A stretch of 64,000 bases of DNA, from the NCBI GenBank assembly GCA_964408485.1, contig CAYOZJ010000001.1:28366-92365 (forward strand). Reading direction: 5' to 3'. This document shows, piece by piece, positions 2,691-46,106 of the stretch. The stretch is from an uncultured Gammaproteobacteria bacterium (GTDB lineage: Bacteria; Patescibacteriota; Microgenomatia; Levybacterales; UBA12049). The position numbers and the translations under genes are program-made. The notes under the pieces were generated by a model. The model saw only the letters and a program-made list of their open reading frames with translations. It had not been told where the DNA came from and did not search any database. Positions within the stretch are counted from its first letter, which is position 1; the number at the start of each line of letters is the position of its first letter.

Positions 2691-2781
2691 GATGGAAAAC
2701 GTCCTTTCGAATAAAACGAGAGGCCTATCGAAGAGATTTCTCACTTTGTTCGAAATGACAAAGAGAAGGAGGTGAGAAAAT

Positions 2782-3047: not shown

Positions 3048-3072
3048 GTCATTCTGAACGAAGCGAAGAATC
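3048..3072. repeat. short hairpin repeat unit GTCATTCTGAACGAAGCGAAGAATC (family A)
   Basis: Member of the dispersed GTCATYC...GRATC family, whose copies are listed in the findings. Confidence 0.7.
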
Positions 3073-3080
3073 TAGAAATA

Positions 3081-3131
3081 GGTGAGCAAACCTCACCCCA
3101 ACCCTCTCCTAAAAGGCGAGGGAGATCAAGG
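3081..3131 (+). promoter_or_regulatory. conserved thrS leader: GGTGAG-loop-CTCACC hairpin plus CCCTCTCC-TAAAAGG-CGAGGGAG hairpin (family D)
   Basis: The same two-hairpin arrangement, with the same GTCAT-type element before it, precedes pheS at 6470-6524. A TAAAAGG/TAGAAGG loop sits between complementary CCTCTCC/GGAGAGG arms just 5' of the AAGGA RBS. Confidence 0.45.
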
Positions 3132-6390: not shown

Positions 6391-6393
6391 AAT

Positions 6394-6450
6394 GTCATCC
6401 CGCACTAGATGCGGGATCCAGAATTAGATTCCTGCTTTCGCAGGAATGAC
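6394..6450. repeat. composite hairpin repeat: GTCATCC-CGCACTAGATGCG-GGATC plus GATTCCTGC-TTTC-GCAGGAATGAC
   Basis: Two hairpin units in opposite orientation give overall terminal inverted repeats GTCAT...ATGAC. The same composite is at 16108-16167 and, in-frame, inside recG and the HhH-GPD gene. Confidence 0.7.
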
Positions 6451-6469
6451 AATCTGTTCTATAATCTAT

Positions 6470-6524
6470 GTGAGGAAATAACCTCACCTCAATCCTCTCC
6501 TAGAAGGAGAGGAAGAATAAAAGG
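6470..6524 (+). promoter_or_regulatory. conserved pheS leader (GTGAGG-loop-CCTCAC hairpin plus CCTCTCC-TAGAAGG-AGAGG hairpin; family D)
   Basis: Paralogous to the thrS leader at 3081-3131, immediately 5' of the pheS RBS. Confidence 0.45.
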
Positions 6525-7973: not shown

Positions 7974-9929
7974 ATGGATATAAAAATACTTGATTCACAC
8001 TTACGAGAATATTTGCATACAGATGCCAAACCTATGGAGATTGCAAAAGCAGTATCCTTGACAAGTGCATCTATTGAACGTGTTGAACAATACGGAAAAG
8101 ATTTTGTGTATTCTGTAGAAATAACAACCAACAGACCGGATATGGTTAGTGTTTACGGCCTAGCAAGAGAAGCAGCTGCTGTTTTACCGTCCTTTGGATT
8201 TAGCGCAAAATTAGTACCTCTCAAACTTCCTGAAGTAAAAGTTGAAACAGATAAAAAAGAAAGTATAAAAGTTGTCAATGACGACACACTAGTAAGACGG
8301 GTTATGGGAGTTATTATAGAAGTTACAAAAGGAGAGTCGCCACAATATATGAAAGACCGACTTGATGCTGCAGGAATAAGAAGTCTTAATAATATTATTG
8401 ATGTCACTAATTATGTAATGCTTGAAATTGGTCATCCAACTCATGCATTTGATTACGATAGACTAACAACTAAGCAACTTATCATTAGACCTTCCAAAAA
8501 AGGAGAAAAGGTTATTACGCTTGATAAGAAAGAACACATACTACAGGGAGGCGATATTGTGGCAGATGATGGAACAGGTGAGATAGTTGACCTTCTCGGC
8601 GTAATGGGAACAGCAAATAGTGTCGTGACAGATAGCACGAAGCGAGTATTTTTCTTTCTCGACAATAATGATCCGTGGAAAATCAGAAAAACATCTATGG
8701 GCCTAGCTATTCGGACCGAGGCAGCAGCGCTCAACGAGAAGGGAGTCGACCCACAACTTGCTGAAGTAGCACTCAAAAGAGGAGTAGAGTTGTATAGACA
8801 GATGGGTGGAAAAGTTGTTAGTGACGTCATTGACATCTATCCGGGGAAAGTAAAACAGACAACAGTACGTGTTACTGTTGAGGAGATTTCCAAAATCATT
8901 GGTGTTGACGTAAAGGGGCGTCAAGCAGTCAAAATCCTGACAGATTTAGGTTTTGAAGTCTCTGAAAATTCTAGCAGTCTTACAGTTAAAGTGCCAAGTT
9001 GGCGGGAAGGGGACGTTGCAATTCCAGAAGATGTTATCGAAGAAGTCGCAAGATTGTATGGGTATCATAATATTCCGGTAAGACTTCCACCCTTCACTAT
9101 TCATAGTTTTTATCATCAAGGACAGAGTCAATTTTTCTGGGAACAGAAAGTAAAAGACGCATTAAAGTATTGGGGACTAACAGAAGTGTACACATACTCT
9201 ATGGTAAGTGAAACGCTTTTTGAAGGACCTCTAGAAGAAGCAGTAACGCTAGCAAATGCATTGGATAGCGAGCATGTCCATATGCGAGCAACACTAACAC
9301 CCAGCTTACTTCAAGTAGTTGCAGAGAATAAAGCACGTGAGAATGTGGCCATTTTTGAAATTGCCAATGTCTACAAGAAAAATAAGAAAGAAAAACTTCC
9401 CGATGAATTGCGAAGTCTCAGCTTTGTCCTAAAAGGAGAAAAGGGAACTTTTGCTAACGCAAAGGGGATTGTAGAGCAACTATTACATGAGCTGGGCATT
9501 CATAATGCTATTTATAGAGACTCCGAACTTGGTGGCATTGGAGCGAGTGTGTATATTGGAAAAGAGTCTATTGGCACAATTGAGGTTATGGAAAGCAGAT
9601 TGGTAACAGCAGAACTTAATTTTGAAAAGCTACTTATGCATGTAACCTTAAAAAAAGTCTATAAGCCACTCAGCAAATATCCTGCAATTACGGAAGACGT
9701 GTCATTCCTACTGCCTGAAGAAGTAAAAACAGGAGATGTTATAGAAGATATTCGTTTAACTGATAAGTTAATTGTAAACATTGAACTTCTTGATGTGTTT
9801 GAGAATAGCCGAACATTCCATGTTGTGTATCAAGATCCAGAAAGAAATCTAACAACAGAAGATGTGAGTGGTATTCATAAGAAAATTATTTCCTCTGTTG
9901 AGAAAAAGTTTAAAGGAAAGGCAAAATAG
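7974..9929 (+). CDS. pheT: phenylalanyl-tRNA synthetase beta subunit (short form)
   Basis: B3/B4 and B5 domains plus the C-terminal catalytic-like and FDX-ACB regions are recognisable. At 651 aa it lacks the N-terminal tRNA-binding domain. Confidence 0.9.
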   Translation: MDIKILDSHLREYLHTDAKPMEIAKAVSLTSASIERVEQYGKDFVYSVEITTNRPDMVSVYGLAREAAAVLPSFGFSAKLVPLKLPEVKVETDKKESIKVVNDDTLVRRVMGVIIEVTKGESPQYMKDRLDAAGIRSLNNIIDVTNYVMLEIGHPTHAFDYDRLTTKQLIIRPSKKGEKVITLDKKEHILQGGDIVADDGTGEIVDLLGVMGTANSVVTDSTKRVFFFLDNNDPWKIRKTSMGLAIRTEAAALNEKGVDPQLAEVALKRGVELYRQMGGKVVSDVIDIYPGKVKQTTVRVTVEEISKIIGVDVKGRQAVKILTDLGFEVSENSSSLTVKVPSWREGDVAIPEDVIEEVARLYGYHNIPVRLPPFTIHSFYHQGQSQFFWEQKVKDALKYWGLTEVYTYSMVSETLFEGPLEEAVTLANALDSEHVHMRATLTPSLLQVVAENKARENVAIFEIANVYKKNKKEKLPDELRSLSFVLKGEKGTFANAKGIVEQLLHELGIHNAIYRDSELGGIGASVYIGKESIGTIEVMESRLVTAELNFEKLLMHVTLKKVYKPLSKYPAITEDVSFLLPEEVKTGDVIEDIRLTDKLIVNIELLDVFENSRTFHVVYQDPERNLTTEDVSGIHKKIISSVEKKFKGKAK

Positions 9930-9930
9930 T

Positions 9931-10209
9931 ATGGTGCATGGAAAAAAAGGCGGAGAATCTTTAGAAGGATTATCGAGAGAACAAAACAAACCCAGAAGAG
10001 TAAGAAGAGTTTCTGTAACAGTAACAGCAGAAGCTGCAGAAAGAATATCAGGACTTCTTGGAACAGAACTTTTTAGAAGAGCTATGAAATGGCATGAAGA
10101 GCCAAATGCTGACCCAGAATTTGAAACTTTCGGAGCAATGACAAGACTTGGCAGCTCTTTAGGAAAAACAGCGCGAAGGATGAGAGAGGAAGAGCTTCAA
10201 GAAGAGTAG
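9931..10209 (+). CDS. small hypothetical basic protein
   Basis: ATG at 9931 just after the pheT stop. The ORF-track start at 9868 overlaps pheT and was not used. Confidence 0.35.
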   Translation: MVHGKKGGESLEGLSREQNKPRRVRRVSVTVTAEAAERISGLLGTELFRRAMKWHEEPNADPEFETFGAMTRLGSSLGKTARRMREEELQEE

Positions 10210-10215
10210 TAACAA

Positions 10216-10246
10216 GATTGCCACGTAGCGAGCTCCTCGCAATGAC
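10216..10246. repeat. hairpin repeat unit GATTGCCACG-TAGCGAGCTCCT-CGCAATGAC (family A/B)
   Basis: GATT...AATGAC flanks around an imperfect inverted repeat, in the spacer between the small ORF and the PBP 3' end. Confidence 0.6.
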
Positions 10247-16107: not shown

Positions 16108-16167
16108 GTCATCCTCGACCTGATCGGGGATCCAGGAAATAGATTGCCGCGCTTCGCTCGCAATGAC
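16108..16167. repeat. composite hairpin repeat (GTCATCCTCGACC..GGGGATC plus GATTGCCGCGCTTCGCTCGCAATGAC)
   Basis: Same two-unit architecture as 6394-6450, immediately upstream of the recG promoter. Confidence 0.7.
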
Positions 16168-16189: not shown

Positions 16190-18283
16190 ATGAAACTCTC
16201 AACCCCGATTACTAATGCAGGTAAACTGTATGCAAATTACGCAGGCCGCTTGGAAAAACTCGACATTTTTACCTTAAAGGATTTTTTGTATCACTTGCCA
16301 GCTCGCTATGACGACTTCTCTCATATTGTTGCAATTAAAGATTTGGTCGCTGGCGAGTTAGTAACAATACAGGGACAAATTACCGAAATAACAAATAGCT
16401 ATACACGGTCTCGTAAGCAAATTCAAAAAGCAACAATCACCGACGACAGCGGGACACTGCCTGTTATTTGGTTTAATCAACCATACATCACCAAGACGTT
16501 AAAGTTTGGTGATAGCGTGTCTTTATCAGGGAGAGTGCAATCGGATGGATTTATTCCAAGTCTTGTTGCACCTGATTTTGAAATTATTCCAATGAGCGGT
16601 AGGACAATTCATACTGGCAGGCTTGTCCCAGTGTATCCTGAGACAGCAGGGGTCAGCTCCAAATGGCTAAGACGCCAAGTAGATAAGTTACTTGCAACCT
16701 CTTATGAACTTGTTGAATTTCTACCAGATGAAACGCAAAAACGCCTTGACCTCATGCCATTTAATAAGGCCATTGCTCAGATTCATTTTCCCGATGCTCT
16801 AGGAGAATCAGAAAAAGCCCGCGAGCGCTTAGGATTTGATGAAATCTTTTTACTTCAATTAGCAAATATAAAAAGAAAAAGGGAGTGGCAAGAAAAAGTA
16901 TTAGGAAATACATTTGCGATAGAAAAATTCCAAAAGGAAATTGATAAATTTTGGGAAAGCCTACCATTTGAGCCAACAAGCGCGCAAAGACGAGCAATTC
17001 ATGAGATTATGAGTGACCTTGCTAGCCCTCATGCAATGAATAGATTACTCCAGGGAGATGTAGGAAGTGGCAAAACAATCGTCGCTGGTATTGCAATGTA
17101 TATGGCATTTTTAAATGGTTTTCAATCTGTCCTTATGGCACCAACAGAAATTTTAGCCAATCAACATTACGAAACACTAAAAAAATTACTCGAGCCGCTT
17201 GGAGTAAAGGTTGACTTAGCAACTGGTTCTAAAAAAACAGAACGCGTCATTGCGAGCGAAGCGAAGCAATCTAATATTAATAAGGAGAAGATTGCCGCGT
17301 CGTCTTCGACTCCTCGCAATGACAATTCATTTGACATCCTTATTGGTACCCATGCCGTACTTTCTGACAAGATAAATTACGAAAAATTAGGACTTGTTGT
17401 TATTGATGAGCAACATAGGTTTGGAGTAGAGCAACGATCTATTATTCGCTCCAAAGGCACAAATCCCCATGTCCTTACCATGACAGCAACACCAATCCCT
17501 CGTACCGTTGCGCTTACACTTTATGGGGATCTTGAGCTTTCTATTCTTGATGAAATGCCCAAAGGAAGACAAGTTATTAAGACATGGCTTGTCCCTAATC
17601 AAAAGCGTGAAGCAGGATATGAGTGGATAGAAAAACAAATTAAGAAAGGCGATCAGGCATTTATTGTCTGTCCGTTTATTGAAGAGTCTGAATCCCTAAC
17701 TACTATTAAAGCAGCGAGTAGTGAATTTGAACAACTTCAAAAACATGTTTTCCCAAAGCTCAAACTCGGACTTTTGCACGGAAAAATGCGAGCAAAAGAG
17801 AAAGATGAAGTTTTGGAGAAGTTTCGAAAGGGCAGTATAGATATTCTCGTCGCGACACCAGTTGTTGAAGTTGGCATAGACATTCCAAATGCAACAATTA
17901 TCCTTATTGAGGCAGCAGAAAGATTTGGACTATCACAGCTTCATCAACTCAGAGGTAGAGTTGGGAGAGGAGATAAGCAGTCATATTGCCTTCTTTTTAC
18001 CGAGAGTAGCAGCCCTCAAGCAACCCAACGTCTTAAAAGTATGGAACACATTCATAATGGCGCGGAATTAGCAGAGTTAGACTTAAAAATGCGAGGCTCT
18101 GGGGACTTATACGGCACTCTTCAACACGGCAGAAAATGGCTTAAAATAGCCTCATTTTCCGATACCAGACTTTTGGAAATAGCCAAACAAGAGGCAATAC
18201 GAGTTTTTCCAGATCTAAATAAATATCCACTTCTTATTGAGAAAATTGAAGAAACGGCCACAAAACAGGTTAGTCCAGACTGA
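16190..18283 (+). CDS. recG: ATP-dependent DNA helicase RecG
   Basis: Wedge domain, Walker A GDVGSGKT, DEQH box, helicase C motifs. Carries a 78-nt in-frame repeat insertion at 17246-17323. TATAAT lies 8 nt upstream of the ATG. Confidence 0.95.
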   Translation: MKLSTPITNAGKLYANYAGRLEKLDIFTLKDFLYHLPARYDDFSHIVAIKDLVAGELVTIQGQITEITNSYTRSRKQIQKATITDDSGTLPVIWFNQPYITKTLKFGDSVSLSGRVQSDGFIPSLVAPDFEIIPMSGRTIHTGRLVPVYPETAGVSSKWLRRQVDKLLATSYELVEFLPDETQKRLDLMPFNKAIAQIHFPDALGESEKARERLGFDEIFLLQLANIKRKREWQEKVLGNTFAIEKFQKEIDKFWESLPFEPTSAQRRAIHEIMSDLASPHAMNRLLQGDVGSGKTIVAGIAMYMAFLNGFQSVLMAPTEILANQHYETLKKLLEPLGVKVDLATGSKKTERVIASEAKQSNINKEKIAASSSTPRNDNSFDILIGTHAVLSDKINYEKLGLVVIDEQHRFGVEQRSIIRSKGTNPHVLTMTATPIPRTVALTLYGDLELSILDEMPKGRQVIKTWLVPNQKREAGYEWIEKQIKKGDQAFIVCPFIEESESLTTIKAASSEFEQLQKHVFPKLKLGLLHGKMRAKEKDEVLEKFRKGSIDILVATPVVEVGIDIPNATIILIEAAERFGLSQLHQLRGRVGRGDKQSYCLLFTESSSPQATQRLKSMEHIHNGAELAELDLKMRGSGDLYGTLQHGRKWLKIASFSDTRLLEIAKQEAIRVFPDLNKYPLLIEKIEETATKQVSPD
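17246..17323. repeat. composite hairpin repeat inserted in-frame within recG (78 nt, 26 codons)
   Basis: GTCATTGCGAGCGAAGCGAAGCAATC, a spacer, then GATTGCCGCGTCGTCTTCGACTCCTCGCAATGAC. It encodes ...ASEAKQSNINKEKIAASSSTPRNDNS.... A near-identical second half is in the HhH-GPD gene at 38596-38703. Confidence 0.75.
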
Positions 18284-19841: not shown

Positions 19842-19865
19842 ATTATAATTACAAAATTTATGCAA

Positions 19866-19889
19866 TCATCCTGAGCAGTGCGAAGGATC
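19866..19889. repeat. hairpin repeat unit ATCATCCTGAGCAGTGCGAAGGATC
   Basis: Family A unit in the rpsP-KH spacer. Confidence 0.6.
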
Positions 19890-20170: not shown

Positions 20171-20968
20171 ATGAAGGTTACTATTCTCACTCTTTTTCCC
20201 GAAATGTTTGATGGACCATTTCGAGAATCTATTCTCAAACATGCCCAGCAAAAGGGATTATTGGAAATTACGTTAGTAAATATCCGAGATTTTGGAGAAG
20301 GACGACATAAAATCGTTGACGACAAACCCTATGGGGGTGGAGTTGGAATGGTAATGAAAGTTGATATTTTAGATAAAGCGATTCAAGCAGTAAAGGATAA
20401 CTCATTAGATACAACCCAACAAAAGGTAATTCTTCTCGATGCCAGAGGAAAAACATTTGTTCAGGAAAAAGCAAAAGAATTTTCAGGACTAAAACATCTT
20501 ATTATTCTTTGTGGACACTATGAGGGTGTGGACGAAAGAATAAGAGATCTTGTCGATGAAACAATTTCCCTTGGGGACTTTATTCTGACAGGGGGAGAAA
20601 TTCCTGCAATGATTATTGTAGATAGCGTTACTAGACTTATCCCTAGTGTGTTAAAAGACGATGCAACCCTTAAGGAATCGTTCAGCATAATCCATAGCAC
20701 TGCATCCCAACCTCACCCTGACCCGGCCAGGCTTGTCAAGCAAGCAGCCTCTCTCACTTCGTTCAGTCCGGCCCTAAAAGGAGAGGGAAATCAAGGAGAT
20801 GTTTCTTTATTAGAATTTCCTCAATATACTACACCAAGAGAATACAATGGAAAAGAAGTTCCTAATGTCTTACTGTCTGGCAATCATAAAGAAATAGAAA
20901 AATGGAGAAAAGAAAAGTCTCTTGAAATAACTCAACAACACAGACCTGATCTTCTTAAAAAGAATTAA
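20171..20968 (+). CDS. trmD: tRNA (guanine37-N1)-methyltransferase
   Basis: MKVTILTLFPEMF...YGGGVGMV SPOUT-fold motifs. Carries an in-frame insertion of about 120 nt (20690-20808) and a C-terminal extension. TACAAT lies 7 nt upstream of the ATG. Confidence 0.95.
   Translation: MKVTILTLFPEMFDGPFRESILKHAQQKGLLEITLVNIRDFGEGRHKIVDDKPYGGGVGMVMKVDILDKAIQAVKDNSLDTTQQKVILLDARGKTFVQEKAKEFSGLKHLIILCGHYEGVDERIRDLVDETISLGDFILTGGEIPAMIIVDSVTRLIPSVLKDDATLKESFSIIHSTASQPHPDPARLVKQAASLTSFSPALKGEGNQGDVSLLEFPQYTTPREYNGKEVPNVLLSGNHKEIEKWRKEKSLEITQQHRPDLLKKN
20690..20808. repeat. repeat-derived in-frame insertion in trmD (about 40 codons)
   Basis: Contains AACCTCACCC ... CCCTAAAAGGAGAGGGAAATCAAGG (family D) interrupted by CCGGCCAGG...CTCTCTCACTTCGTTCAGTCCGG (reverse family-A core ctgaacgaag). 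Encodes IIHSTASQPHPDPARLVKQAASLTSFSPALKGEGNQGDVS between the conserved DSF and LLE.P.YT segments. Confidence 0.6.
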
Positions 20969-24369: not shown

Positions 24370-24963
24370 CTACCTATTTATATTTCGTATACCAATTGAT
24401 GTCTGGAAAACAACAGCGCTTTGAGAAGCAAGTTGCTCTGCAAACGTACTGCTTGATGATTGTTGCAGCGAAAAGTTTATTAAAATAACTGGTAAGTCAG
24501 AATTGCTTTCTTGAGAACAAGTGAATGAACATGATTTCAATGAAACCTGTGATGTATCCAGCAGACTTGCACCATTTGATGATATTGTTGAACTTGTACA
24601 CGCGTAGGTTATTTGCTGATTATCAGGCGTAAGAAGAGAAATAGAATTTGCCGTTACCGGTGGACTGCAGGGAAAAGGAGTCACCAAACCTCTCGCATCC
24701 CGAATAGTTTTAGCCATTTGTGAAAGAGTATAATTTCCATTATTTTGCACAAGTGTAACAATATCTGTTTTATGGGATGTTCTAAATGTTGTTACGAGAA
24801 TACTAAATACGATCGATCCAACGACAATAAAAATTGCAATAACGGCAAGCATTTCAACAAGAGTAAACCCACGCGAAGAGCATAGGGCGAAGGGTCTAGG
24901 GCACAGAATGTCCTTATTCTTTTTAACTCTATGCTCTGTGCTATATGCTCTATGCTTTTTCAT
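24370..24963 (-). CDS. prepilin-type N-terminal cleavage/methylation domain protein (pseudopilin)
   Basis: RGFTLVEMLAVIAIFIVVG class III signal motif. Confidence 0.7.
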   Translation of the reverse strand: MKKHRAYSTEHRVKKNKDILCPRPFALCSSRGFTLVEMLAVIAIFIVVGSIVFSILVTTFRTSHKTDIVTLVQNNGNYTLSQMAKTIRDARGLVTPFPCSPPVTANSISLLTPDNQQITYACTSSTISSNGASLLDTSQVSLKSCSFTCSQESNSDLPVILINFSLQQSSSSTFAEQLASQSAVVFQTSIGIRNINR

Positions 24964-25508
24964 GGCGTTGGAAAAACAGTGAAATCAGAAAAACATGTAG
25001 ACAGTGTTACAGAGTGACAAAAAGGATTTAATGTGTCTTGGCATTTTGGATCATACCATGATGTCCTAACAGTTATCTTAACGTTTGCTGATAGCGCATT
25101 TACTTGACCATTTGGCGTAGGACTTACATTACAATCAGCAGAATCATGCTCGACAACAACTTCCCGTACAAATTTATCAACATTTTGACCACAACTTGTG
25201 GTTTTCACCCAACATTGTGCGTTATTACTATCAAGATCAGAGCAGGCTTTTGCCAAACAATATGTATCGTCTGGTAATAATTCTGCCGAGATTGATGCAA
25301 TATTTTCATTGCGCATATCACGAATCAGCTCAATTCCAGCTTGTGTATATTGTGTTGCAATATTTTGGTCTCTCGCAAAGTCACTATTATTTAACGCACT
25401 AAGTGATGCGCTAACAATTGCCCCAATAATAACAACTGCTGCCGTGAGCGCCACTAACACTTCAATAAGTGTCTGTCCTTTCTCATTTGAAATTTTAAAT
25501 TTCATCAC
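24960..25508 (-). CDS. prepilin-type pseudopilin
   Basis: KGQTLIEVLVALTAAVVIIG N-terminal motif. Start overlaps the upstream gene by 4 nt. Confidence 0.65.
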   Translation of the reverse strand: MMKFKISNEKGQTLIEVLVALTAAVVIIGAIVSASLSALNNSDFARDQNIATQYTQAGIELIRDMRNENIASISAELLPDDTYCLAKACSDLDSNNAQCWVKTTSCGQNVDKFVREVVVEHDSADCNVSPTPNGQVNALSANVKITVRTSWYDPKCQDTLNPFCHSVTLSTCFSDFTVFPTP

Positions 25509-26164
25509 TGTATTACTCCTGTTGCAGAAACAGTTGCAATCTTAGTAAACCCATATCCGGTTATACCAATCTGGGGCGTTGCACCTGACGCATTTGTTGT
25601 CACTGCACCAGTAACCGATGAGAAGAAGAAATAGGTTGCTTTTGTTTTACTTGATGTATCAATAGTCACACCCGGATCCTGAATTTTTTTCCCAAGACAA
25701 GTCTGCGTTATTCTTCCTGACCCATCTGAATTCCCATATACTGCTTGTAACTCATAGGTGTTGGTGTTGGTATTACACTGCGCAGATAAACAAAGTGAGC
25801 TAAATGAGCAACAGGCAACTACTTGGTATCCTTCTAATTCGTACCCCTGACCAGTAAATCCATTTGCAAAACAAGTAGTATCGCGAAGTTGGGAAAGCGC
25901 TCGGGATCTGGCAGTAAAAAGGGTTGTCTTAAACTCTTTCATTGCAGTGTCTACCTGCTGAGATCTGCTGTAGCTTACAAATGAGGCAATACCAACAAGG
26001 GAAAGAATTACCATAACAGAAAAAACAATAATAAGCTCTATGAGAGTAAAACCACGCTCATGCTTTGCATGAGAATTTCCAATTTCTAATTTCCAATTTC
26101 TAACAGAAAGTGTTACGGTGTTATTTTTAGAAGAATTTGAAATTTGACATTTGAAATTTGACAT
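25505..26164 (-). CDS. prepilin-type pseudopilin with long leader
   Basis: ERGFTLIELIIVFSVMVIL motif. A ~45-aa leader is encoded by a low-complexity GAAATTTGACATTT tandem repeat. Confidence 0.65.
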   Translation of the reverse strand: MSNFKCQISNSSKNNTVTLSVRNWKLEIGNSHAKHERGFTLIELIIVFSVMVILSLVGIASFVSYSRSQQVDTAMKEFKTTLFTARSRALSQLRDTTCFANGFTGQGYELEGYQVVACCSFSSLCLSAQCNTNTNTYELQAVYGNSDGSGRITQTCLGKKIQDPGVTIDTSSKTKATYFFFSSVTGAVTTNASGATPQIGITGYGFTKIATVSATGVIQ

Positions 26165-26173
26165 TTGAAATTT

Positions 26174-26740
26174 TTATGGGTTATTTTTTGTGTAGTATAC
26201 GCCTGAGGTACATGCACTATCTCCACCTGCAAACGAAGACGTTGAGTCTGTATCTGCTGAATTTTCAAGACATGCAGCAAGAGTATAGGTAGTACCTGTT
26301 GTATCGTAGTAATAACTTCCTACATGGTAATACGTATTACCCAGTGGGTCGCAGGGAATTTTCTGCATATAGGTTGACCCTGAGTAGGTAAAACTAGATG
26401 GAGTAGGGCAGGCAGCACTATTGAGCCTATTTGTCCCACCTTCTGGAGGATAAGTACCAGTATCAGATCTGTATAACTCAAGCGCCGATTGGATTTGTCT
26501 AACGTCAGATTTTCTTTGTGCATCTCTTGCACGCTGTCTAATACCAATAAAATTGGTCATAAGAAGCGTTGAAAGAATACCAATGATCGCAATAACAATA
26601 AGAAGTTCAATAAGAGTAAAGCCAGCGTTGCTGGAAGTTCCAAATCCCAATTTCCAAGAAACAATTAAATTCCAATACCTCAAATTCCACATTGTTTGTA
26701 TCTTGTTTCTTGTTTCTTGTTTCTTGTTCATACAGATCAA
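26174..26740 (-). CDS. type IV major pilin-like protein (paralog 1)
   Basis: NAGFTLIELLIVIAIIGIL followed by ARD..RKSD..QIQSALELYRSDTGTYP, the T4a pilin / GspG-like fold signature. 45-aa leader. Confidence 0.8.
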   Translation of the reverse strand: MICMNKKQETRNKIQTMWNLRYWNLIVSWKLGFGTSSNAGFTLIELLIVIAIIGILSTLLMTNFIGIRQRARDAQRKSDVRQIQSALELYRSDTGTYPPEGGTNRLNSAACPTPSSFTYSGSTYMQKIPCDPLGNTYYHVGSYYYDTTGTTYTLAACLENSADTDSTSSFAGGDSACTSGVYYTKNNP

Positions 26741-26772
26741 TGGTAAATGGTAAATAATAAATCGTCAATGGG

Positions 26773-27416
26773 CTAGGGTGTTGTGTTAGGACTACTAACA
26801 CCATAGTTGCAAGGGTGGTGTTTGCCTGACGCTCCACAATCAACTGCTGCTGGAACGTTACCACATGTGCAGTACGTGAGACTTTCCGGATTATTAATAC
26901 AATTAGAGACCGTGGCTTTGCAAGTTTGTGTGTCATTTGGTCCTTGTTCAATTGACGTATAGAGATAGTATGACTGAGGAGATCCTCCTGGGGCATAGTA
27001 CACATACGTTCTACTAGAATCCGGATCTTTCGGCACAAGATCCATGTATGGCGACCAACCGCCTGATGCTCCCCATCCAAGACTGACACCATTAAAATCT
27101 GTTATGGTGTATGACGAACTGCTTTTTGGATAATTACCATGATCTTGATAATATTGCTCTAATACTCTTTGAATTTGTGCTAAATCAGACTTACGCTCGC
27201 CATCTCGCGCTTTTCTAAATTGCGCAAGGGGATTAAGGGCTGCAAGAGCAAAAACAGCAAGAATTGCTAAGATTCCAATAACGATAATCAATTCTATAAG
27301 AGTAAAGCCAGCGTTGCTGGAAGTTCCAAATCCCAATTTCCAAGAAACAATTAAATTCCAATACCTCAAATTCCAAATTGTTTGTATCTTGTTTCTTGTG
27401 TCTTGTGTCTTCGTCA
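26773..27416 (-). CDS. type IV major pilin-like protein (paralog 2)
   Basis: Leader plus N-terminal helix nearly identical at DNA level to paralog 1. C-terminal domain divergent and Cys-containing. Start placed at MTKTQDTRNK. Confidence 0.8.
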
Positions 27417-27418
27417 TA

Positions 27419-28213
27419 TTAATTAAATGCACAACTTTGACTGCAGTGCTGATCACAATAACAGTGGATATCTCCACCATAGTCTGTACACTGCGTCTTT
27501 GGTGCAATACTATTACATCTATTATCTCCTGTGCATCCATAAAACTGGTCACCAGGGCATGCAAGCGGCGTAGGAGTTGGTGTTATAGTCGGACCACCAC
27601 TGCCACCAGTAACAGTTGGAACTGTATCGCCTTGATTAATAACGTAACTGGCAACTTGGCTACAATCAACACTTCCTGAAATAGTACAGTAATTATAGTT
27701 ATTGGTTCTATACCCATTTGGCACACATGATGTTCGCTGTGCAAGAGGACAAGCATTACTTGGGACAGACGAACTCCGCAGGGCTGAGTACAAGACGTTC
27801 CATTGAGGACAGCTACTCGTTGAGTCAGGCTCATATAAGTAACACTTATCCGAATCACTGCCACAATCAGGATCCTGAGGAACTTTTTCCATATACACAT
27901 GATTATGTACTTTCCAGATCACCCCAAAGGTCAAAGAAGTTGGGTAACATCCAGTATCATTAAAGTAGCTATCAAGTGCCCTTTGAATTTGTCCCAAATC
28001 ATGCTCTCTCTTTCCATCATTTGCTTTATTGTATTGAGCAAGGGGATTAAACGTAGTAATCAGTCCAACAAGAAGAATTCCTAAAATAGCCAAAACAACA
28101 ACTAGCTCAATAAGAGTAAAACCTGATTGATAATGAAACCAACTATACGACTGAGAAAGATTCTTCAAAAACCAAGAATTCTTACTGCGTATTTCCATAA
28201 AAAATCTCCCCAT
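27419..28213 (-). CDS. type IV pilin-like protein with Cys-rich C-terminal domain (paralog 3)
   Basis: QSGFTLIELVVVLAILGIL plus NDGKREHDLGQIQRALDSYFNDTGCYP. About 20 Cys in the C-terminal 120 aa. The start overlaps the pilD 3' end. Confidence 0.8.
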   Translation of the reverse strand: MGRFFMEIRSKNSWFLKNLSQSYSWFHYQSGFTLIELVVVLAILGILLVGLITTFNPLAQYNKANDGKREHDLGQIQRALDSYFNDTGCYPTSLTFGVIWKVHNHVYMEKVPQDPDCGSDSDKCYLYEPDSTSSCPQWNVLYSALRSSSVPSNACPLAQRTSCVPNGYRTNNYNYCTISGSVDCSQVASYVINQGDTVPTVTGGSGGPTITPTPTPLACPGDQFYGCTGDNRCNSIAPKTQCTDYGGDIHCYCDQHCSQSCAFN

Positions 28214-28935
28214 ATTAGTGCTAGTAATGCTCCGAGAAAAAGGAAAGGTCCAAAAGCAATTGTGCTTCCTTTAAATTTCTTTTTCCCTTCTAAAATGAGT
28301 ATGACGCCGCATATACCACCTGTCAAGAAAGCTATATAGTATGCAACAACAATATATGGAAATCCAAGAAGAAATCCTAAAATTGCAACAAGTTTTACAT
28401 CTCCAAACCCCATCCCCCTGCCTTTAGAAAAAAGAAAAATAAGAAAAAGCGGTAAACTAGCCATAATAGCTACAACTAATCGCAAAGGAATCGTTGTGGG
28501 ATCGACAAGGAAAACAGCACACACAACAAGAATTCCAAACACAATAAGCAATGCATCCGACAAGATATGATACTTGATATCCATAATCGCAAGAGCAATC
28601 CCTAGAGAAAACAGTAACGCACTAATTGAATACATACCGAGATGAACCATATCGGTAGGCCACTGAAAAAGAAAAATCCCAATAAAAGCGATGCCAGTGA
28701 GAAGTTCTATGAGAGGGTATTGAAAAGAAAGCTTTTTATGACAATACCTACATTTTCCTCTCAGGAAGGCAAAGGACACAATTGGAATGAGATCAAACGC
28801 AGAAAGAGTATGATGACAAAAATCACAATGTGACCGACCAAAAAGTACTGATTTATTTGCAGGTATTCTATCAATCAAAACATTAAGAAACGAACCCATA
28901 CATAATCCAAAAATAAATAAAAAAAATATTGCCAT
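28165..28935 (-). CDS. pilD: prepilin peptidase (A24 family)
   Basis: N-terminal CxxC...CxxC zinc-binding cytoplasmic domain and polytopic membrane domain (GMGFGDVKL region). Confidence 0.9.
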   Translation of the reverse strand: MAIFFLFIFGLCMGSFLNVLIDRIPANKSVLFGRSHCDFCHHTLSAFDLIPIVSFAFLRGKCRYCHKKLSFQYPLIELLTGIAFIGIFLFQWPTDMVHLGMYSISALLFSLGIALAIMDIKYHILSDALLIVFGILVVCAVFLVDPTTIPLRLVVAIMASLPLFLIFLFSKGRGMGFGDVKLVAILGFLLGFPYIVVAYYIAFLTGGICGVILILEGKKKFKGSTIAFGPFLFLGALLALIWGDFLWKYAVRILGF

Positions 28936-28998
28936 AAAACAACCCTCACCCTTGTATTCCCTCTCCCAAAAGGAGAGGGGGCTTTGTCACGTTACCCA

Positions 28999-30153
28999 TT
29001 ATGCTACCCAATAATTAAGACTATGCATCACAAGAAAAAGTCCTTGTAATAGTAAGCTTATGTAGAGATATGGAAAAGTAATTGTTTCATATTTTTTTTC
29101 ATATGACATAATCGATAAACATACAAATAAAGGAAAAATAATAACCAAATATCTTGTGTATGACATAAAACTACCACCCAAGACGGGCAACAATCCAAAG
29201 CAAAGACTATAAACAAAATATACTGCAGACACTCTTTTTCTCATAAAGAAAAGGGATACAACAAAGGAGAAAAAAAACAGTCTATCAAGCAGGGAATCAG
29301 TAAATCCATGAATATGCAATGGAAAAGTAAACAATGCCTTAAGAAAAAAGAGAGGATTAAAAAGAGAAAAAAATGAATAATGAGAAACAAAATTTTGCTG
29401 TGCGCTAAACTGTGCAAACAAGCTTCCCGCTGTAATATAATAGATGATCATTGCAAGAATAAGCCCAAAAATGGGAAGAAAAAGAAAGAGTGTCTTTTTT
29501 TGTAATACTGTTTTCCCAATAACATGCATTTCGTCATAAAAAGAATGACGAGAATATTCAAGAATATAGGAAAAAAAGAAAGGAATAAGTATCGCAACTC
29601 CAATCAAACGCGTCAACGGAAGGAAGAATGCAACAAGAGATGCTCTGACAAGTTTTTTTTCTTGGAGAAAAAGAAAGAATAAAATAACAAGCAGGAAAAA
29701 CAGACTTTCTGTGTAAATAAGAGAGAAATAAAAACTTGTTGGAAAAGCAAGCAGCAGCAACAGGCTTCTTTTTGCAATTTTTTCGTTGTATTGATTCTTA
29801 ATCAAGAGATAAAACAAGTAAAAGCCGATACAAGAGAAAACATTTGCAAGTACCATCCCTGCAACAAAACTATTTCTTACTATCAACGTTGTGAGAAATA
29901 TAATAAAAGGCAAAAGAGGAGAGAATGCATTAGATTCATCATTTTTATGATATCCTTTCTCGCTTATATAAAGATAGTGCTGTGCATCCCATGTTTTATA
30001 TGAAGTGACAAGTGAAATTTGTTCGCGTATTGGATACGTAAAATTTGCAAAATATGTTGGTGCATTAAATGGTAAAAGAGAAAAACAAAGAAAAATAAAA
30101 ACAACAATACAAATTTTTACTGACAGAATAATAAAAATTATATCTCGTTTCAT
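28999..30153 (-). CDS. polytopic membrane protein, putative GT-C-fold glycosyltransferase
   Basis: About 11 predicted TM segments and a WDAQHYLYISEKGY motif in the first extracytoplasmic loop, reminiscent of GT-C mannosyltransferases. Functional assignment is inferential. Confidence 0.45.
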   Translation of the reverse strand: MKRDIIFIILSVKICIVVFIFLCFSLLPFNAPTYFANFTYPIREQISLVTSYKTWDAQHYLYISEKGYHKNDESNAFSPLLPFIIFLTTLIVRNSFVAGMVLANVFSCIGFYLFYLLIKNQYNEKIAKRSLLLLLAFPTSFYFSLIYTESLFFLLVILFFLFLQEKKLVRASLVAFFLPLTRLIGVAILIPFFFSYILEYSRHSFYDEMHVIGKTVLQKKTLFLFLPIFGLILAMIIYYITAGSLFAQFSAQQNFVSHYSFFSLFNPLFFLKALFTFPLHIHGFTDSLLDRLFFFSFVVSLFFMRKRVSAVYFVYSLCFGLLPVLGGSFMSYTRYLVIIFPLFVCLSIMSYEKKYETITFPYLYISLLLQGLFLVMHSLNYWVA

Positions 30154-30162
30154 ACAATAGGT

Positions 30163-32196
30163 TTATTTACTTGATACTCCAAGCGTATCTTTTGACGCTG
30201 ACAATGCCTTTTGAAAGTCTTTGCGATAGAGTTGGGTATAGGCGATACTTACCTCACTTGCTCTTTTTTTATCTTTAAAACAATTCAGATACATAGTATA
30301 TAAGAGAAAGTATGGTGTTTCTTGATACTGGTTGAGTGCTAGTGATTGAGAAAGATTATCTGCTGCATAGCCACATTTTCCAGCAATTCCAGAATATAAA
30401 ACTCCCAACGCGCTATATGCTTTATCATTATTCGGCTCAATATCGCGGGCTTTTTTATAGAAAGAAAGCGCGCTATCTGTATCTTGATAGCGTGTATAGA
30501 TAAAGGTTCCAGTAGCAATAAGTGAATTACTATACGCATTGGGGATTTCCGCAATTGTTAGGCTATGAGCAACAGGATTTTTTCTTTCTTCAATTGTTGG
30601 AGCATGAAGCGTTGACCAAATAGAACCAACTTGCATTTCGTAACTTTTTTTGTCGGGGAGACGATCTACATCTTGATACATTTCAAAAACAAGTCCGAAA
30701 GGTACCCATATAAGTTTTTCGCCTGTTTTGGGTTGAAATTGAGTTGTTGAAAAAATTCGCCGTGTGCTACTCATCGAACGGACTATCTTTATTAGTGCTT
30801 CTGTTCTATTTTTCGAGCTAACTCCTTTAAGACCATCTGCAATACTATTGTGCGTTACAGGTGTTGCCCCTATATTATAAAGGAGAATGTCTGGCCGGTC
30901 ATGAAGCGCGTAATGCACATACCATGTATTAAAAATTTGTGTATCCCCAGATATAAGAAGTACAGCATTACGCGGCAATGGATCGAGAAAGTCTTTCGCG
31001 TAGGTATCGCCAATCATAAGGGATGCAAGATTTGTCTTAGGGGTATTATAGACAAAAAGCATGAGCGGAATGAAAAGAAAAAGACAGGTAAAAAGAACTT
31101 CATAATGACGTTTGGGTAAAAAGCTTGCAAGACGCACAGTAAATACATAAAGGCCAATTCCAAAAGGAATAAGAAAAATCACCGTTGAAAGTAAGGTAAA
31201 TCGTTCGTATGCACCAATAATAAAACTGCTTGTTAAAGGAAATCCTGCATACATCAAAAAAACTGGACCAGAAAGCAACCACGCAAGAAATAGTGACGTG
31301 AAGAGTATTTTATCCTTTTTGAAAATGTGCCAAAACCCAAGAAAAGTAAGTACTATCGTTGGAATTGTTAACTGAAATAAAAGATACTGTACATAAAGCC
31401 ATAAGGTAACAAGGCGTTGCGCAAAGGAAGGCGTATCAAAAATACCAGCTTGAAAGGTACCATAATCTTTCCGGAGAATTAAATGAAAAAAGGAGGGAAT
31501 ATCATGAACTGAATCCCAATTAATAATTGGGTTATGGGCAGATGCAATAAAAATATATAAGAAAGGTGTTAATCCAAGAACAAATGATAAAAGCAAAAGA
31601 AGAATCAATAACATATTCTTTTTTATCTGAAGAAATAATTGTTTCCCAATTAATAGAAAAAGTGATGGAACGATAAGAATAATTGTTGAATGATGCGTAG
31701 AGGCAAGTCCGAGGCAAAAAAAGAAAAGATACAATACGGGTCCTTTTTTACTTTGACGAAAAAGAAGCGCCAAAAGAAATAGCACAAGCGCAAAGAATGT
31801 ATTTAACATAAATACTTCAGCAACTTCCGCATAAAACCAATAGAGAAAAGAGAATCCAAGAATGAGTGATGCAACAACACTGTTTAATGAATTTTTTGTA
31901 AGTTGCTTGGTAAAAAGATAAAAACATACAACGCCACCTGCTCCCGCAAATGCAGAAATTAACCCAACGGCAAATGCAGGAGAAATACGAGCAAGAATGG
32001 AATGAGTTAGTAAAAATCCTAGAAAGGTGAATAACGGATATCCTGAAGGGTGAGCAACTCCTCCAACGCTTGCTGCTGTTACTAAGTCGCCAACATCTCC
32101 TCCATAAATACTTCTCGAGAGATGACTAACGTAAAGCAGCAAAAATCCACTAAACAAAAATGTGGGCAGGATAATTTTCTTAACTAAAGAGAGCAT
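30163..32196 (-). CDS. DUF2723/TMEM260-like GT-C membrane protein with C-terminal TPR repeats
   Basis: N-terminal polytopic domain with GGDVGDL...HPSGYPLF loop, then a soluble C-terminal TPR region (YKKARDIEPNNDKAYSALGVLY...). Confidence 0.55.
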   Translation of the reverse strand: MLSLVKKIILPTFLFSGFLLLYVSHLSRSIYGGDVGDLVTAASVGGVAHPSGYPLFTFLGFLLTHSILARISPAFAVGLISAFAGAGGVVCFYLFTKQLTKNSLNSVVASLILGFSFLYWFYAEVAEVFMLNTFFALVLFLLALLFRQSKKGPVLYLFFFCLGLASTHHSTIILIVPSLFLLIGKQLFLQIKKNMLLILLLLLSFVLGLTPFLYIFIASAHNPIINWDSVHDIPSFFHLILRKDYGTFQAGIFDTPSFAQRLVTLWLYVQYLLFQLTIPTIVLTFLGFWHIFKKDKILFTSLFLAWLLSGPVFLMYAGFPLTSSFIIGAYERFTLLSTVIFLIPFGIGLYVFTVRLASFLPKRHYEVLFTCLFLFIPLMLFVYNTPKTNLASLMIGDTYAKDFLDPLPRNAVLLISGDTQIFNTWYVHYALHDRPDILLYNIGATPVTHNSIADGLKGVSSKNRTEALIKIVRSMSSTRRIFSTTQFQPKTGEKLIWVPFGLVFEMYQDVDRLPDKKSYEMQVGSIWSTLHAPTIEERKNPVAHSLTIAEIPNAYSNSLIATGTFIYTRYQDTDSALSFYKKARDIEPNNDKAYSALGVLYSGIAGKCGYAADNLSQSLALNQYQETPYFLLYTMYLNCFKDKKRASEVSIAYTQLYRKDFQKALSASKDTLGVSSK

Positions 32197-32202
32197 GAGA
32201 GC

Positions 32203-32763
32203 CTATTGCGAGCACCAATAGCAGGCAGTTGATGTTGGATTACAATCTCCAGTTGGTGAGTGTGGCGAACCATCTCTATTAAATTTAGCATTTGGATCCG
32301 ACCTTTGAGCTTTTGATTGTGGTTGGAAGCAGGCGGTAATATCGGTATCTGTTCCACTGACAATGATACTAGTTAATACACTCGTTACTGTCGTGAAGGC
32401 AGCCTTAATCTCTCCATCTGACACAAGACTACTCAAGCAAGTTACCAAATCAGGATTAAGAGACAATGACGTTGGATTATTATTGCCATTACACCCATTA
32501 TGCCATGGCATACTGTTATGAGTTGTGTAGTAGCGAATATTTGCATCAATAAATTCAACCGCAGTATTTTTAGTGTTCGCATCATTTGCTTTCTTAAGCT
32601 GCTCGAATGGATCAATAGTTGCAACAAGCGCTGCAGCCAAAACACCTAAAATACCAATAACAACAAGGAGTTCGATAAGGGTAAAACCCTTTTGTGAAGA
32701 AATATGAAAACTCCTTAGGAGTTTGGACAGTTTTTTCATGAATCTATACTTTAAGTTAAACAT
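32203..32763 (-). CDS. type IV pilin-like protein
   Basis: KGFTLIELLVVIGILGVLAAALVATI class III signal and N-terminal helix. Start may be the second Met (MKKLSKLL). Confidence 0.75.
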   Translation of the reverse strand: MFNLKYRFMKKLSKLLRSFHISSQKGFTLIELLVVIGILGVLAAALVATIDPFEQLKKANDANTKNTAVEFIDANIRYYTTHNSMPWHNGCNGNNNPTSLSLNPDLVTCLSSLVSDGEIKAAFTTVTSVLTSIIVSGTDTDITACFQPQSKAQRSDPNAKFNRDGSPHSPTGDCNPTSTACYWCSQ

Positions 32764-37768: not shown

Positions 37769-38425
37769 ATGCAAAGTTTTATTATTGCTTCCCGCAACAC
37801 AGAAAAAAGAAAAGACTATATAGAAAGTTTTTGCACCAGCAAATCTATTAGCCAATTTGACAAGCACTATATACAACCTGGAGAAAATTCCTTTGGTATT
37901 ACCGAAATCAGAAATGTTCAAAAAACAGCATTCCTTCGTCCACAAAAAGGAAGTGAGAAAGCAATTATTTTGGAGAATGCCCAAAAGCTTACTACAGAGG
38001 CCCAAAACGCATTACTCAAAATGCTGGAAGAACCTCCTACAAATACCTATATTTTCTTGTCTGCAACAACAGAGAATTTCTTTCTTCCAACTATCCTCTC
38101 ACGATGCAAGCTGATTATATTGCCAGAACAAGACACTACGATTTCTGATGAAGAAAAAGAGATACTACACAGTCAGATACAAATTATGACAACAGGTACT
38201 GTTGGCGATAAATTATATCTTGCTGAAAAGGTAGCAGGGGAGAAGGAGAAAATAGGGGAGTGGTTACGAGAAATCGTACTCCTTCTTCGAGACAACATGC
38301 TCGAAGATCCAAAGAATGCTACATATCCTAATTTTATTGTACAAATGCAGGAAGCGAGTAAGTTTTTCCAAACAACAAATGTCGCCCCACGAGTATTACT
38401 TGAGCATACATTTCTTTCTCTATGA
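37769..38425 (+). CDS. holB: DNA polymerase III delta' subunit-like (short)
   Basis: AQNALLKMLEEPP and TILSRC motifs of clamp-loader delta'. Reduced length of 218 aa. Confidence 0.7.
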   Translation: MQSFIIASRNTEKRKDYIESFCTSKSISQFDKHYIQPGENSFGITEIRNVQKTAFLRPQKGSEKAIILENAQKLTTEAQNALLKMLEEPPTNTYIFLSATTENFFLPTILSRCKLIILPEQDTTISDEEKEILHSQIQIMTTGTVGDKLYLAEKVAGEKEKIGEWLREIVLLLRDNMLEDPKNATYPNFIVQMQEASKFFQTTNVAPRVLLEHTFLSL

Positions 38426-39099
38426 AATTTAATGATCCAATACTGCAGGAGTTAGTCAAAAAATATCCTGCGCCAAAATTTGAAGACCGGACAGGAAAAC
38501 TTTATGAAGAATTGGTTGAATCTATTATTTCCCAACAACTATCTGTCAAAGCATCAGATACTATATATAAGCGGTTTAAGGACTTATTTAAACCTGTCAT
38601 TGCGAACAGTGCGCGACCCCTCGGCGAAGATAGTCCCGAGTCGGGAAAGCAATCTAATACAAATAACGAGATTGCCGCGTCGTCTTCGACTCCTCGCAAT
38701 GACGCCTTCCCATCGCCTCAACAAGTTCTTGCCATGTCGGACGAACTTCTTCGAACAGCAGGTATTTCTTTTCAAAAAATTTCCTATATAAAAAGTGTTG
38801 CCGATGCTTTTATTTCCGATTTAATTGATGTTGAAAAAATAAAGAAAATGACTAATGATGAAGTGATTGAGACACTTACCCAAATTCGGGGAGTAGGGAA
38901 GTGGACTGCAGAAATGACTCTTATTTTTACACTCAAAAAACCTGATGTATTTTCTTTGGGAGACTTAGGTCTTCGCAATGCAATTACCAAGCTGTATGGA
39001 ATAACAGATCAAAAGAAAATGCTTGAGTTATCTGAAACCTGGAAACCTTTTAGAAGTTATGCGTGTTGGTATTTGTGGAGAAGTCTGGAGAATAGTTAA
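38422..39099 (+). CDS. HhH-GPD superfamily DNA glycosylase (AlkA/3-methyladenine glycosylase II-like)
   Basis: Helix-hairpin-helix GVGKWTAEM followed by a catalytic Asp. Contains a 108-nt in-frame repeat insertion at 38596-38703. Confidence 0.7.
   Translation: MKFNDPILQELVKKYPAPKFEDRTGKLYEELVESIISQQLSVKASDTIYKRFKDLFKPVIANSARPLGEDSPESGKQSNTNNEIAASSSTPRNDAFPSPQQVLAMSDELLRTAGISFQKISYIKSVADAFISDLIDVEKIKKMTNDEVIETLTQIRGVGKWTAEMTLIFTLKKPDVFSLGDLGLRNAITKLYGITDQKKMLELSETWKPFRSYACWYLWRSLENS
38596..38703. repeat. composite hairpin repeat inserted in-frame within the HhH-GPD glycosylase gene (108 nt, 36 codons)
   Basis: GTCATTGCGAAC...GGGAAAGCAATC plus TAATACAAATAACGA plus GATTGCCGCGTCGTCTTCGACTCCTCGCAATGAC. 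The 33-nt second unit is identical to the recG copy. Encodes ...ARPLGEDSPESGKQSNTNNEIAASSSTPRNDA.... Confidence 0.75.
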
Positions 39100-46081: not shown

Positions 46082-46106
46082 GTCATCCTGAGCAAAGCGA
46101 AGGATC
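46082..46106. repeat. hairpin repeat unit GTCATCCTGAGCAAAGCGAAGGATC
   Basis: Family A unit just after folD, followed by a promoter-like TTGACA-N18-CATAAT at 46149-46178 and two intrinsic terminators at about 46186-46216 and 46253-46280. Confidence 0.6.

Follow-up and report, generated by a model that had tools for sequence, protein, structure and literature searches.

A gene for a DNA glycosylase in a 64,000-nt stretch of a Patescibacteria genome (contig CAYOZJ010000001.1 of assembly GCA_964408485.1, positions 28,366 to 92,365; hereafter the window) contains, in frame, a 108-nt inverted dimer of repetitive extragenic palindromic (REP) units tagged with (C/T)GTC, and a sister dimer lies in frame in the recG gene of the same window. 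We think it probable that the glycosylase element is a palindromic repeat dimer that inserted into loop-coding DNA and is carried as a tolerated, translated, disordered loop. This is an ordinary case of a phenomenon described between 2000 and 2013 in other phyla, the superfamily is already catalogued, and no new kind of element or mechanism is revealed; what this case adds is its phylum, its two host genes, a stem type outside the canon, and the recurrence of inserts at the same loops across orthologues. Selfish hairpin repeats translated within housekeeping proteins are now extended to the Candidate Phyla Radiation, where intergenic space is scarce. Such inserts inflate protein length, create spurious peptides common to unrelated proteins, and can mislead homology searches and annotation in metagenome-derived genomes, while their recurrent use of particular loops provides a natural map of insertion-tolerant sites in RecG and in Mag/AlkA-type glycosylases. 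The genes and elements concerned are as follows.

38422-39099, + strand: host gene, HhH-GPD 3-methyladenine DNA glycosylase (Mag1/AlkA-like), 225 aa (Pfam, PDB, Foldseek)
38596-38703: 108-nt inverted dimer of (C/T)GTC-tagged REP units, occupying glycosylase codons 59-94, peptide VIANSARPLGEDSPESGKQSNTNNEIAASSSTPRND
38596-38655, + strand: left unit in the glycosylase, with tag (T)GTC, stem ATTGC...GCAAT, tail CTA, and loop expanded by 33 nt
38656-38669: AT-rich spacer between the glycosylase units, tails included
38670-38703, - strand: right unit in the glycosylase, (C)GTC ATTGC GAGGAGTCGAAGACGACGCG GCAAT CTC, the same as the recG right unit
16190-18283, + strand: second host gene, recG helicase, 697 aa (Pfam RecG_wedge, DEAD, Helicase_C; PDB 1gm5)
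17246-17323: sister dimer in recG, 78 nt, codons 353-378, VIASEAKQSNINKEKIAASSSTPRND

The glycosylase matches Pfam PF00730 (E 2.8e-15) and the PDB entry for S. pombe Mag1 (3s6i; E 6e-35), and its predicted core superposes on Mag1 and Mag2 with target-normalised template modelling (TM) scores of 0.78-0.82 in Foldseek. The element starts at a codon boundary of the open reading frame (ORF) and spans 36 codons, in keeping with the initial annotation, whose quoted sequences all lie where it had placed them. In the alignment with 3s6i, the adjacent chain residues 78 and 79 are matched by query residues 55 and 91, respectively, so that about 35 glycosylase residues are without counterpart; the other solved glycosylase homologues likewise lack the insert, and query residues 56-90 are skipped in their PDB alignments. 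Among the 112 orthologues scorable for loop length, out of the 120 best homologues, the segment that separates the conserved motifs RFKxLF and FPTP is 3-4 residues long in 82. The element also differs in composition from its host, its G+C content being 54% versus 35% for the remainder of the gene. An AlphaFold model built on the 120-sequence alignment has a mean predicted local distance difference test (pLDDT) score of 90 and a predicted TM score of 0.80, and within it residues ~64-98 form a coil with pLDDT 57-49. The insert is therefore predicted to be a disordered surface loop within an otherwise confident Mag1-like fold. Its location had been given as between the N-terminal domain and the HhH motif; the insert does precede the motif, but it is better described as lying in the loop after the helix that follows QQLS, ~50 residues before the HhH hairpin. 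Other identities for the insert were considered and dropped. No terminator-like signal was found inside the glycosylase gene, the T-run of an intrinsic terminator being absent; an intron or intein would not be so short, so devoid of catalytic features, and so respectful of the frame; and the regular spacing of CRISPR repeats is missing. Rfam at gathering thresholds matched only two tRNAs in the whole window and did not match the element.

Each unit consists of an unpaired (C/T)GTC tag, a stem that opens with A-T and T-A, a loop built on GAGCGAAGCGA, and a short tail that begins with C. In both genes the left unit begins GTCATTGCGA and finishes AAGCAATC, and relative to recG the loop in the glycosylase copy is longer by 33 nt (11 codons), an internal expansion that had been noticed initially. 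This expansion folds into a small hairpin of its own and does not occur elsewhere in the 2.18 Mb of loci that we fetched. The 34-nt right unit, GATTGCCGCGTCGTCTTCGACTCCTCGCAATGAC, is exactly the same in the two genes; it has two copies in the window, at 17290-17323 and 38670-38703, and none in 100 shuffles of the window. With its neighboring base it forms an identical tract of 35 nt (the last 35 nt of 38596-38703 against 17289-17323). The right-unit variant with a 20-nt loop was found in the window only (two copies) among all fetched loci, and the 34-nt unit had no match on viral contigs. At the protein level the resemblance is shorter than originally claimed: instead of an identical 17-residue peptide, the longest identical run is 11 residues (IAASSSTPRND), with VIA and KQSN matching further upstream.

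The two dimers share one layout, in which the tags point outward (TGTC/CGTC in the glycosylase, CGTC/TGTC in recG) and the tails (CTA, CTC, CTT) point inward across the AT-rich spacer, and the whole dimer can fold into one long hairpin. Folded as DNA, the two composites form long hairpins with z scores of -4.2 and -6.1 against shuffles; as RNA, their energies are -39 and -31 kcal/mol (z -3.8 and -5.2), and none of 200 shuffles was as stable. Both lengths, 78 and 108 nt, are multiples of three, as the initial annotation stated, and four of the six frames of each dimer are free of stops, which makes survival within genes likely. Neither genic copy is accompanied by a target-site duplication.

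Comparison with a relative, GCA_035457005.1 (loci L226 and L227), which is syntenic with the window over 9.8-46 kb at 67-80% nucleotide identity, adds a history of gain and loss. In the relative's recG (L226) the dimer occupies the same position, the only indels being of 6 and 3 nt, and hence the recG insertion predates the split and has evolved as coding sequence. The left unit is 25/26 identical between the two genomes, the recG genes being ~74% identical, and the right-hand unit of the relative has lost its stem complementarity. Since the recG insert predates the split and the relative's copy has diverged, the 35-nt identity between recG and the glycosylase within the window suggests that the tract was recently copied, or passed by gene conversion, between these two genes of one genome. 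The relative's glycosylase loop reads KKQGRQQNDTT, and its DNA, AAACAAGGGAGGCAACAAAATGAC, may be a deletion remnant. A further difference concerns the spacer between tyrS and recG, where a 60-nt dimer of the window is missing from the relative:

16108-16167: intergenic heterodimer upstream of recG, made of a ATCCTCGACC-type unit (tail CCA) and an ATTGC-type unit

The empty site in the relative reads CAATAATG^TCTGG, again with no target-site duplication, and the relative has another dimer ~130 nt upstream that is absent from the window. We also note that the ORF at 9868-10209 (113 aa, no Pfam match) and the REP unit that follows it have no counterpart at the syntenic position of the relative, which has other small genes there.

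How often are these loops used? Roughly 30 of the 112 scorable glycosylase orthologues carry inserts of 8-55 residues in the same loop, and these belong to several unrelated peptide families. For example, the loops of L237 and L248 contain single CGTC-tagged ATTGC units, that of L236 contains a CGTC/TGTC dimer with ATTCTGG stems, and that of L228 contains a G-rich palindromic dimer of another kind. The inserts enter the loop at slightly different nucleotides and thus represent independent events. Similarly, many RecG orthologues have different palindromic inserts at the recG loop. Many orthologues have 10 residues between ATGS-KK and FDI-LIGTHA, and T. maritima RecG has about 17, so the RecG site also tolerates changes in length.

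Two side observations concern these orthologue sets. An empty-loop glycosylase orthologue (L241:82-822) is bracketed by CGTC-type units at 82-107 and 797-822. In RecG orthologues P0156, P0170, P0181, P0191-P0193, P0201, P0223, P0230, and others, the inserts at the same loop are AT-rich palindromes, with peptides such as YKVSSIKY...HNTKYxIxNT and ESRIKN...HNSxFIIHNS, which suggests a separate AT-rich hairpin repeat family in Microgenomates.

To which family does the element belong? On the anatomy of its sequence, we assign it to the CGTC-tagged REP superfamily (Di Nocera, De Gregorio, and Rocco 2013, BMC Genomics 14:522; PMC3733652), of which it is a non-canonical stem type. Members of that superfamily are defined by an unpaired CGTC (often TGTC) tag, 8-9-bp stems that nearly always begin with A-T, loops of 4-5 nt, a 3-nt tail with consensus CCA, and the absence of a nearby transposase; the units are mostly extragenic and mostly arranged as inverted dimers or heterodimers, with a spacer of 20-100 nt or shorter (PMC3733652). 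Intragenic CGTC dimers encode 20-30 residues, many of their hosts act in replication and repair, and the Rickettsia RPE-4 and RPE-6 repeats and the Neisseria dRS3 repeats were equated with CGTC families (PMC3733652). The tag, AT-initiated stem, tail, and dimeric arrangement of our element match this definition, and on these grounds we file it there. The agreement extends to heterodimers, CCA or CTN tails, in-frame genic copies, repair-gene hosts, and lack of a transposase in the window and in the 38 kb of the relative. Of 541 ATTGC...GCAAT units sampled from the fetched loci, 61% bear a CGTC tag and 33% a TGTC tag, and 43% end in a CCA tail and 28% in a CTC tail. All four units in the two genes have the ATTGC...GCAAT stem, and other units in the window open with ATCC, ATTC, or ATTT. 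Where the canonical type has a stem of 8-9 bp and a loop of 4-5 nt, the element has a 5-bp perfect stem and a 12-20-nt "loop"; according to the authors, there are members with bulges or short stems, and these were under-detected (PMC3733652). Moreover, Patescibacteria is not among the five phyla listed there, and neither recG nor an AlkA/Mag-type glycosylase is among the hosts listed. We found none of the peptides, recG, or the glycosylase in the supplementary tables of that study; literature searches with the unit sequence and the peptides returned chance primer matches only, and a literature search for such repeats in the Candidate Phyla Radiation found no paper in the library searched.

Comparable elements are known elsewhere. 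The Rickettsia palindromic elements (RPEs; Ogata et al. 2000, Science 290:347 and 2002, Genome Res 12:808, as relayed in PMC10969869 and PMC3733652) are described there as palindromic repeats that lie in frame in unrelated housekeeping genes and are compatible with the host fold, as is the case here. According to those accounts, RPE-1 is longer (~100-150 bp) and specific to Rickettsia, in contrast to the generic CGTC units of a free-living or episymbiotic lineage of the Candidate Phyla Radiation, in which many families occur at the same loops. Likewise, in REPINs and BIMEs (Bertels and Rainey 2011, PMC3116915; Nunvar et al. 2010, PMC2817692) two inverted REP units give one long hairpin, there is no target duplication, and populations of copies exist within a genome. 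The REPIN/RAYT system differs in its GTAG-type tag, which is CGTC/TGTC here, and in its single-copy RAYT, an IS200/IS605-like protein; no RAYT/Y1 transposase was found among the annotated genes of the window, the 38 kb of the relative, or the fetched loci. With a classical miniature inverted-repeat transposable element our dimer shares the inverted termini, but no target-site duplication is seen.

The units are widespread. The exact 26-mer GTCATTGCGAGCGAAGCGAAGCAATC is found on 105 IMG/VR viral contigs, and dimers with ATTGCGAG at both termini occur at no fewer than 120 loci of species-representative genomes. Among the dimer matches listed are Alpha- and Gammaproteobacteria, Bacteroidota, Chloroflexota, Planctomycetota, Cyanobacteria, and Patescibacteria, with Bradyrhizobium, Sphingomonas, Mucilaginibacter, Pedobacter, Flavobacterium, Microcoleus, and Rickettsiales among the taxa. 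The majority are extragenic, with close stops in every open frame for 102 of 125 dimers. A gammaproteobacterial UvrA (L150:1761-4490) carries VIASKAKQS...IATSPLAPRND, and the GMP synthase GuaA (L144:4073-5743) carries VIARPRSG...APRND, both in the frame used by the glycosylase, and a penicillin-binding protein of Patescibacteria carries a dimer in another frame (SSLRGPRA...SLAMT). Most of the long ORFs tested that span dimers had no Pfam match and are probably chance frames in GC-rich DNA; we set these aside and regard only UvrA, GuaA, and the penicillin-binding protein as real. One viral contig (L065:442-943) has three exact copies of the 26-nt unit at 238-nt spacing, a tandem arrangement unlike the dimers.

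How might the glycosylase have come to carry the dimer? We regard as shown that a repeat dimer inserted into loop-coding DNA and that the loop tolerates it, as well as the family assignment from anatomy, the gain and loss of copies between relatives, and the recurrence at particular loops in orthologues. In our reading the dimer, or its units stepwise, entered the DNA of a 3-4-residue surface loop without target-site duplication. Its survival would be owed to a length that is a multiple of three, a stop-free frame, a hydrophilic and disordered peptide, and a loop that tolerates changes in length. The glycosylase would then carry a floppy loop of 36 residues while its Mag1-like fold stays otherwise intact, and the recG copy would have had the same history in a loop with a base state of 10 residues. 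Similarity among the copies would be maintained by copying or by gene conversion inside the genome, and the insert would be a tolerated passenger rather than an adaptation. By analogy with Neisseria, the elements may spread as single-stranded hairpin DNA handled by a GIY-YIG nuclease of the Ssn type (cd10448). In that genus SsnA binds the single-stranded hairpin DNA of the NTS motif and cuts a few nucleotides upstream; such motifs frequently border the ssnA gene, cleavage persists when the loop is lengthened, and the NTS/Ssn system modulates transformation (Chenal et al. 2025, Nat Commun 16:2388; PMC11893778). The Neisseria NTS, CGTCATTCCCGCGMAVGCGGGAATCYRG, which goes with dRS3 in the CGTC superfamily, is nearly the window unit at 6427-6450, with the same tag, an AT-initiated stem, and C after the palindrome, and the loop extension tolerated there has a parallel in the extended loop of the glycosylase left unit. 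In-frame copies, which distinguish the present case, are not treated in PMC11893778.

Several points count against parts of this proposal. We infer translation of the 108-nt insert solely from its intact frame, and the passenger status of the insert presupposes neutrality. The units in the two genes combine a 5-bp perfect stem with a mismatched or bulged extension enclosing a GCGAAGC or GTCG/CGAC mini-hairpin, and all four fail the strict published pattern of the Ssn-related motif (SRM), HGTCWYN(0-2)YYVSBRHN(0-5)WNVSBRGN(0-2)RNCYNB, which in the window matches only 6393-6421 plus one chance-like site. A scan for the GIY-YIG motif in six-frame translations of the window and all fetched loci (2.18 Mb) found none, and no transposase was found in the window, the 38 kb of the relative, or the fetched loci. 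A search of unit-ORF-unit arrangements for a mobilising gene yielded only an unrelated viral ORF and the unit-bracketed glycosylase. Finally, the conservation of the recG left unit could reflect constraint on DNA or RNA rather than conversion.

That last point leads to an explanation in which the element acts as a nucleic acid, either as a hairpin in the mRNA, slowing translation or making the transcript more stable, or as a single-stranded DNA site through which an Ssn-type nuclease would modulate recombination or transformation of the repair genes around it, with the peptide as a by-product. Such a role would fit the stability of the RNA hairpins, the intact outer stems of 10-11 bp in both genes, the greater conservation of the recG left unit than of the flanking coding sequence, the self-complementarity of four stem variants in the window around one loop core, and the effect of NTS/Ssn on transformation in Neisseria (PMC11893778). 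Yet the motif scan revealed no Ssn gene in the available sequence, the relative retains its recG despite the lost complementarity of the right unit, and most orthologues have no insert at all. Covariation is weak, six of 12 distinct stem pairs being paired against a permutation maximum of seven, but the loci had been chosen for a single stem type, which keeps this comparison from being decisive. On balance we judge a nucleic-acid role unlikely. Still less do we favor selection on the protein, by which the loops would alter the activity or partners of repair enzymes, for instance to change mutation or recombination rates. Both in-frame CGTC dimers of the window are in DNA-repair genes, a same-family dimer is in the gammaproteobacterial UvrA, the bias toward repair genes was noted earlier together with speculation about mutator effects (PMC3733652), and the reading frame through the recG insert has been kept from a time before the relative split off. 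Against this, the peptides at the same loop are wholly different between orthologues, most of which have none, the predicted state of the insert is disorder, most of the glycosylase insert of the relative seems to have been deleted without harm, and the repair-gene bias of the window amounts to two genes noticed after the fact.

Two other explanations would remove the insertion itself. The loop length is variable across the glycosylase family, and one might imagine low-complexity convergence or a long ancestral loop. We regard this as extremely improbable, given that the alignment of 17246-17323 with 38596-38703 shows a real similarity at the nucleotide level, with 35 identical nucleotides in two unrelated genes and none in 100 shuffles, that units of this kind are also present between genes and in other phyla, that G+C jumps at the element, and that the loop is short in every solved homologue and in the large majority of orthologues. 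The initial judgement in favor of element insertion over convergence is thus upheld by the homologues without counterpart, the intergenic copies, the gain and loss between relatives, the contrast in G+C, and the loop position. An assembly artefact, in which a repeat was mis-joined into the gene, is just as hard to credit. The window protein is on record from a single contig, and repeats can mislead assemblers, a concern raised at the outset; however, the frame is preserved exactly, the recG insert is at the same position within the independent assembly GCA_035457005.1, and independent metagenome contigs have units of the same family in the same glycosylase loop.

Returning to the insertion of a repeat dimer into loop-coding DNA, the census of the window shows that the genic copies are part of a larger population. 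There are ~14 units of one design (GTC, an AT-initiated stem, a loop, and the complementary stem ending in AT followed by C), and four dimers, all with GTCAT ends outward and an AT-rich spacer. Four stem variants are present, each self-complementary around one loop core. Apart from the three dimers already given, the units are the following.

6394-6450: canonical intergenic dimer, TGTC ATCCCGCA CTAGA TGCGGGAT CCA, then the reverse complement of TGTC ATTCCTGC GAAA GCAGGAAT CTA
10216-10246, - strand: single ATTGC-family unit right after the stop of ORF 9868-10209
46082-46106, + strand: single unit with ATCCT/AGGAT stem, loop core shared with the family, downstream of folD
3048-3072, + strand: single unit with ATTCT/AGAAT stem, loop core shared with the family
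2735-2759, - strand: single unit with ATTTC/GAAAT stem
19865-19889, + strand: degenerate intergenic unit (ATCATCCTGAGCAGTGCGAAGGATC), absent from the relative
18545: degenerate unit

The units of the dimer at 6394-6450 are canonical, with 8-bp stems, loops of 5 and 4 nt, and tails CCA and CTA. The inverted units at 2735-2759 (-) and 3048-3072 (+) bracket a 64-aa ORF at 2782-2976 (no Pfam match), with their tags facing the ORF, in a layout that recalls repeat-flanked genes. Just downstream of a CGTC REP in each case, and just upstream of thrS and pheS, is a conserved two-hairpin motif (GGTGAG..CTCACC, then CCTCTCC..GGAGAGG; 3078-3128 and 6468-6518), whose DNA folds with z scores of -4.4 and -5.2. 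The motif could represent another repeat family or a leader common to aminoacyl-tRNA synthetase genes. A third in-frame insert, of 38 codons (IIHSTASQPHPDPARLVKQAASLTSFSPALKGEGNQGD; 20687-20800), is found in trmD (20171-20968), where it divides the TrmD Pfam match into two parts; the insert has no copy in the relative, is not of the CGTC type, folds no better than shuffles, and resembles the two-hairpin motif in its 3' part.

We can also imagine a broader process, although we consider it doubtful: hairpin repeats of several families in Patescibacteria would repeatedly colonise a few surface loops of conserved enzymes (the glycosylase in about 30 of 112 orthologues, RecG in a large share of its orthologues, and trmD in this window), generating length variation, with copies kept alike by conversion and with a bias toward repair and RNA modification that is mechanistic and goes beyond loop tolerance. 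If this were true, peptides derived from REPs would systematically vary the length of proteins in these reduced genomes, and the bias toward repair and RNA-modification genes, which was first noted in 2013 for other phyla, would stem from some mechanism that ties single-stranded-hairpin elements to such genes and not just from tolerant loops.

Finally, we note a different kind of repeat in the window. A run of pilin-like genes at 24800-32700 shares a conserved N-terminal coding segment, present as six copies of a 57-nt repeat on the minus strand; the run belongs to a type IV pilus cluster (PilB/PilT/PilC, prepilin peptidase), and this cluster shows synteny with the relative.

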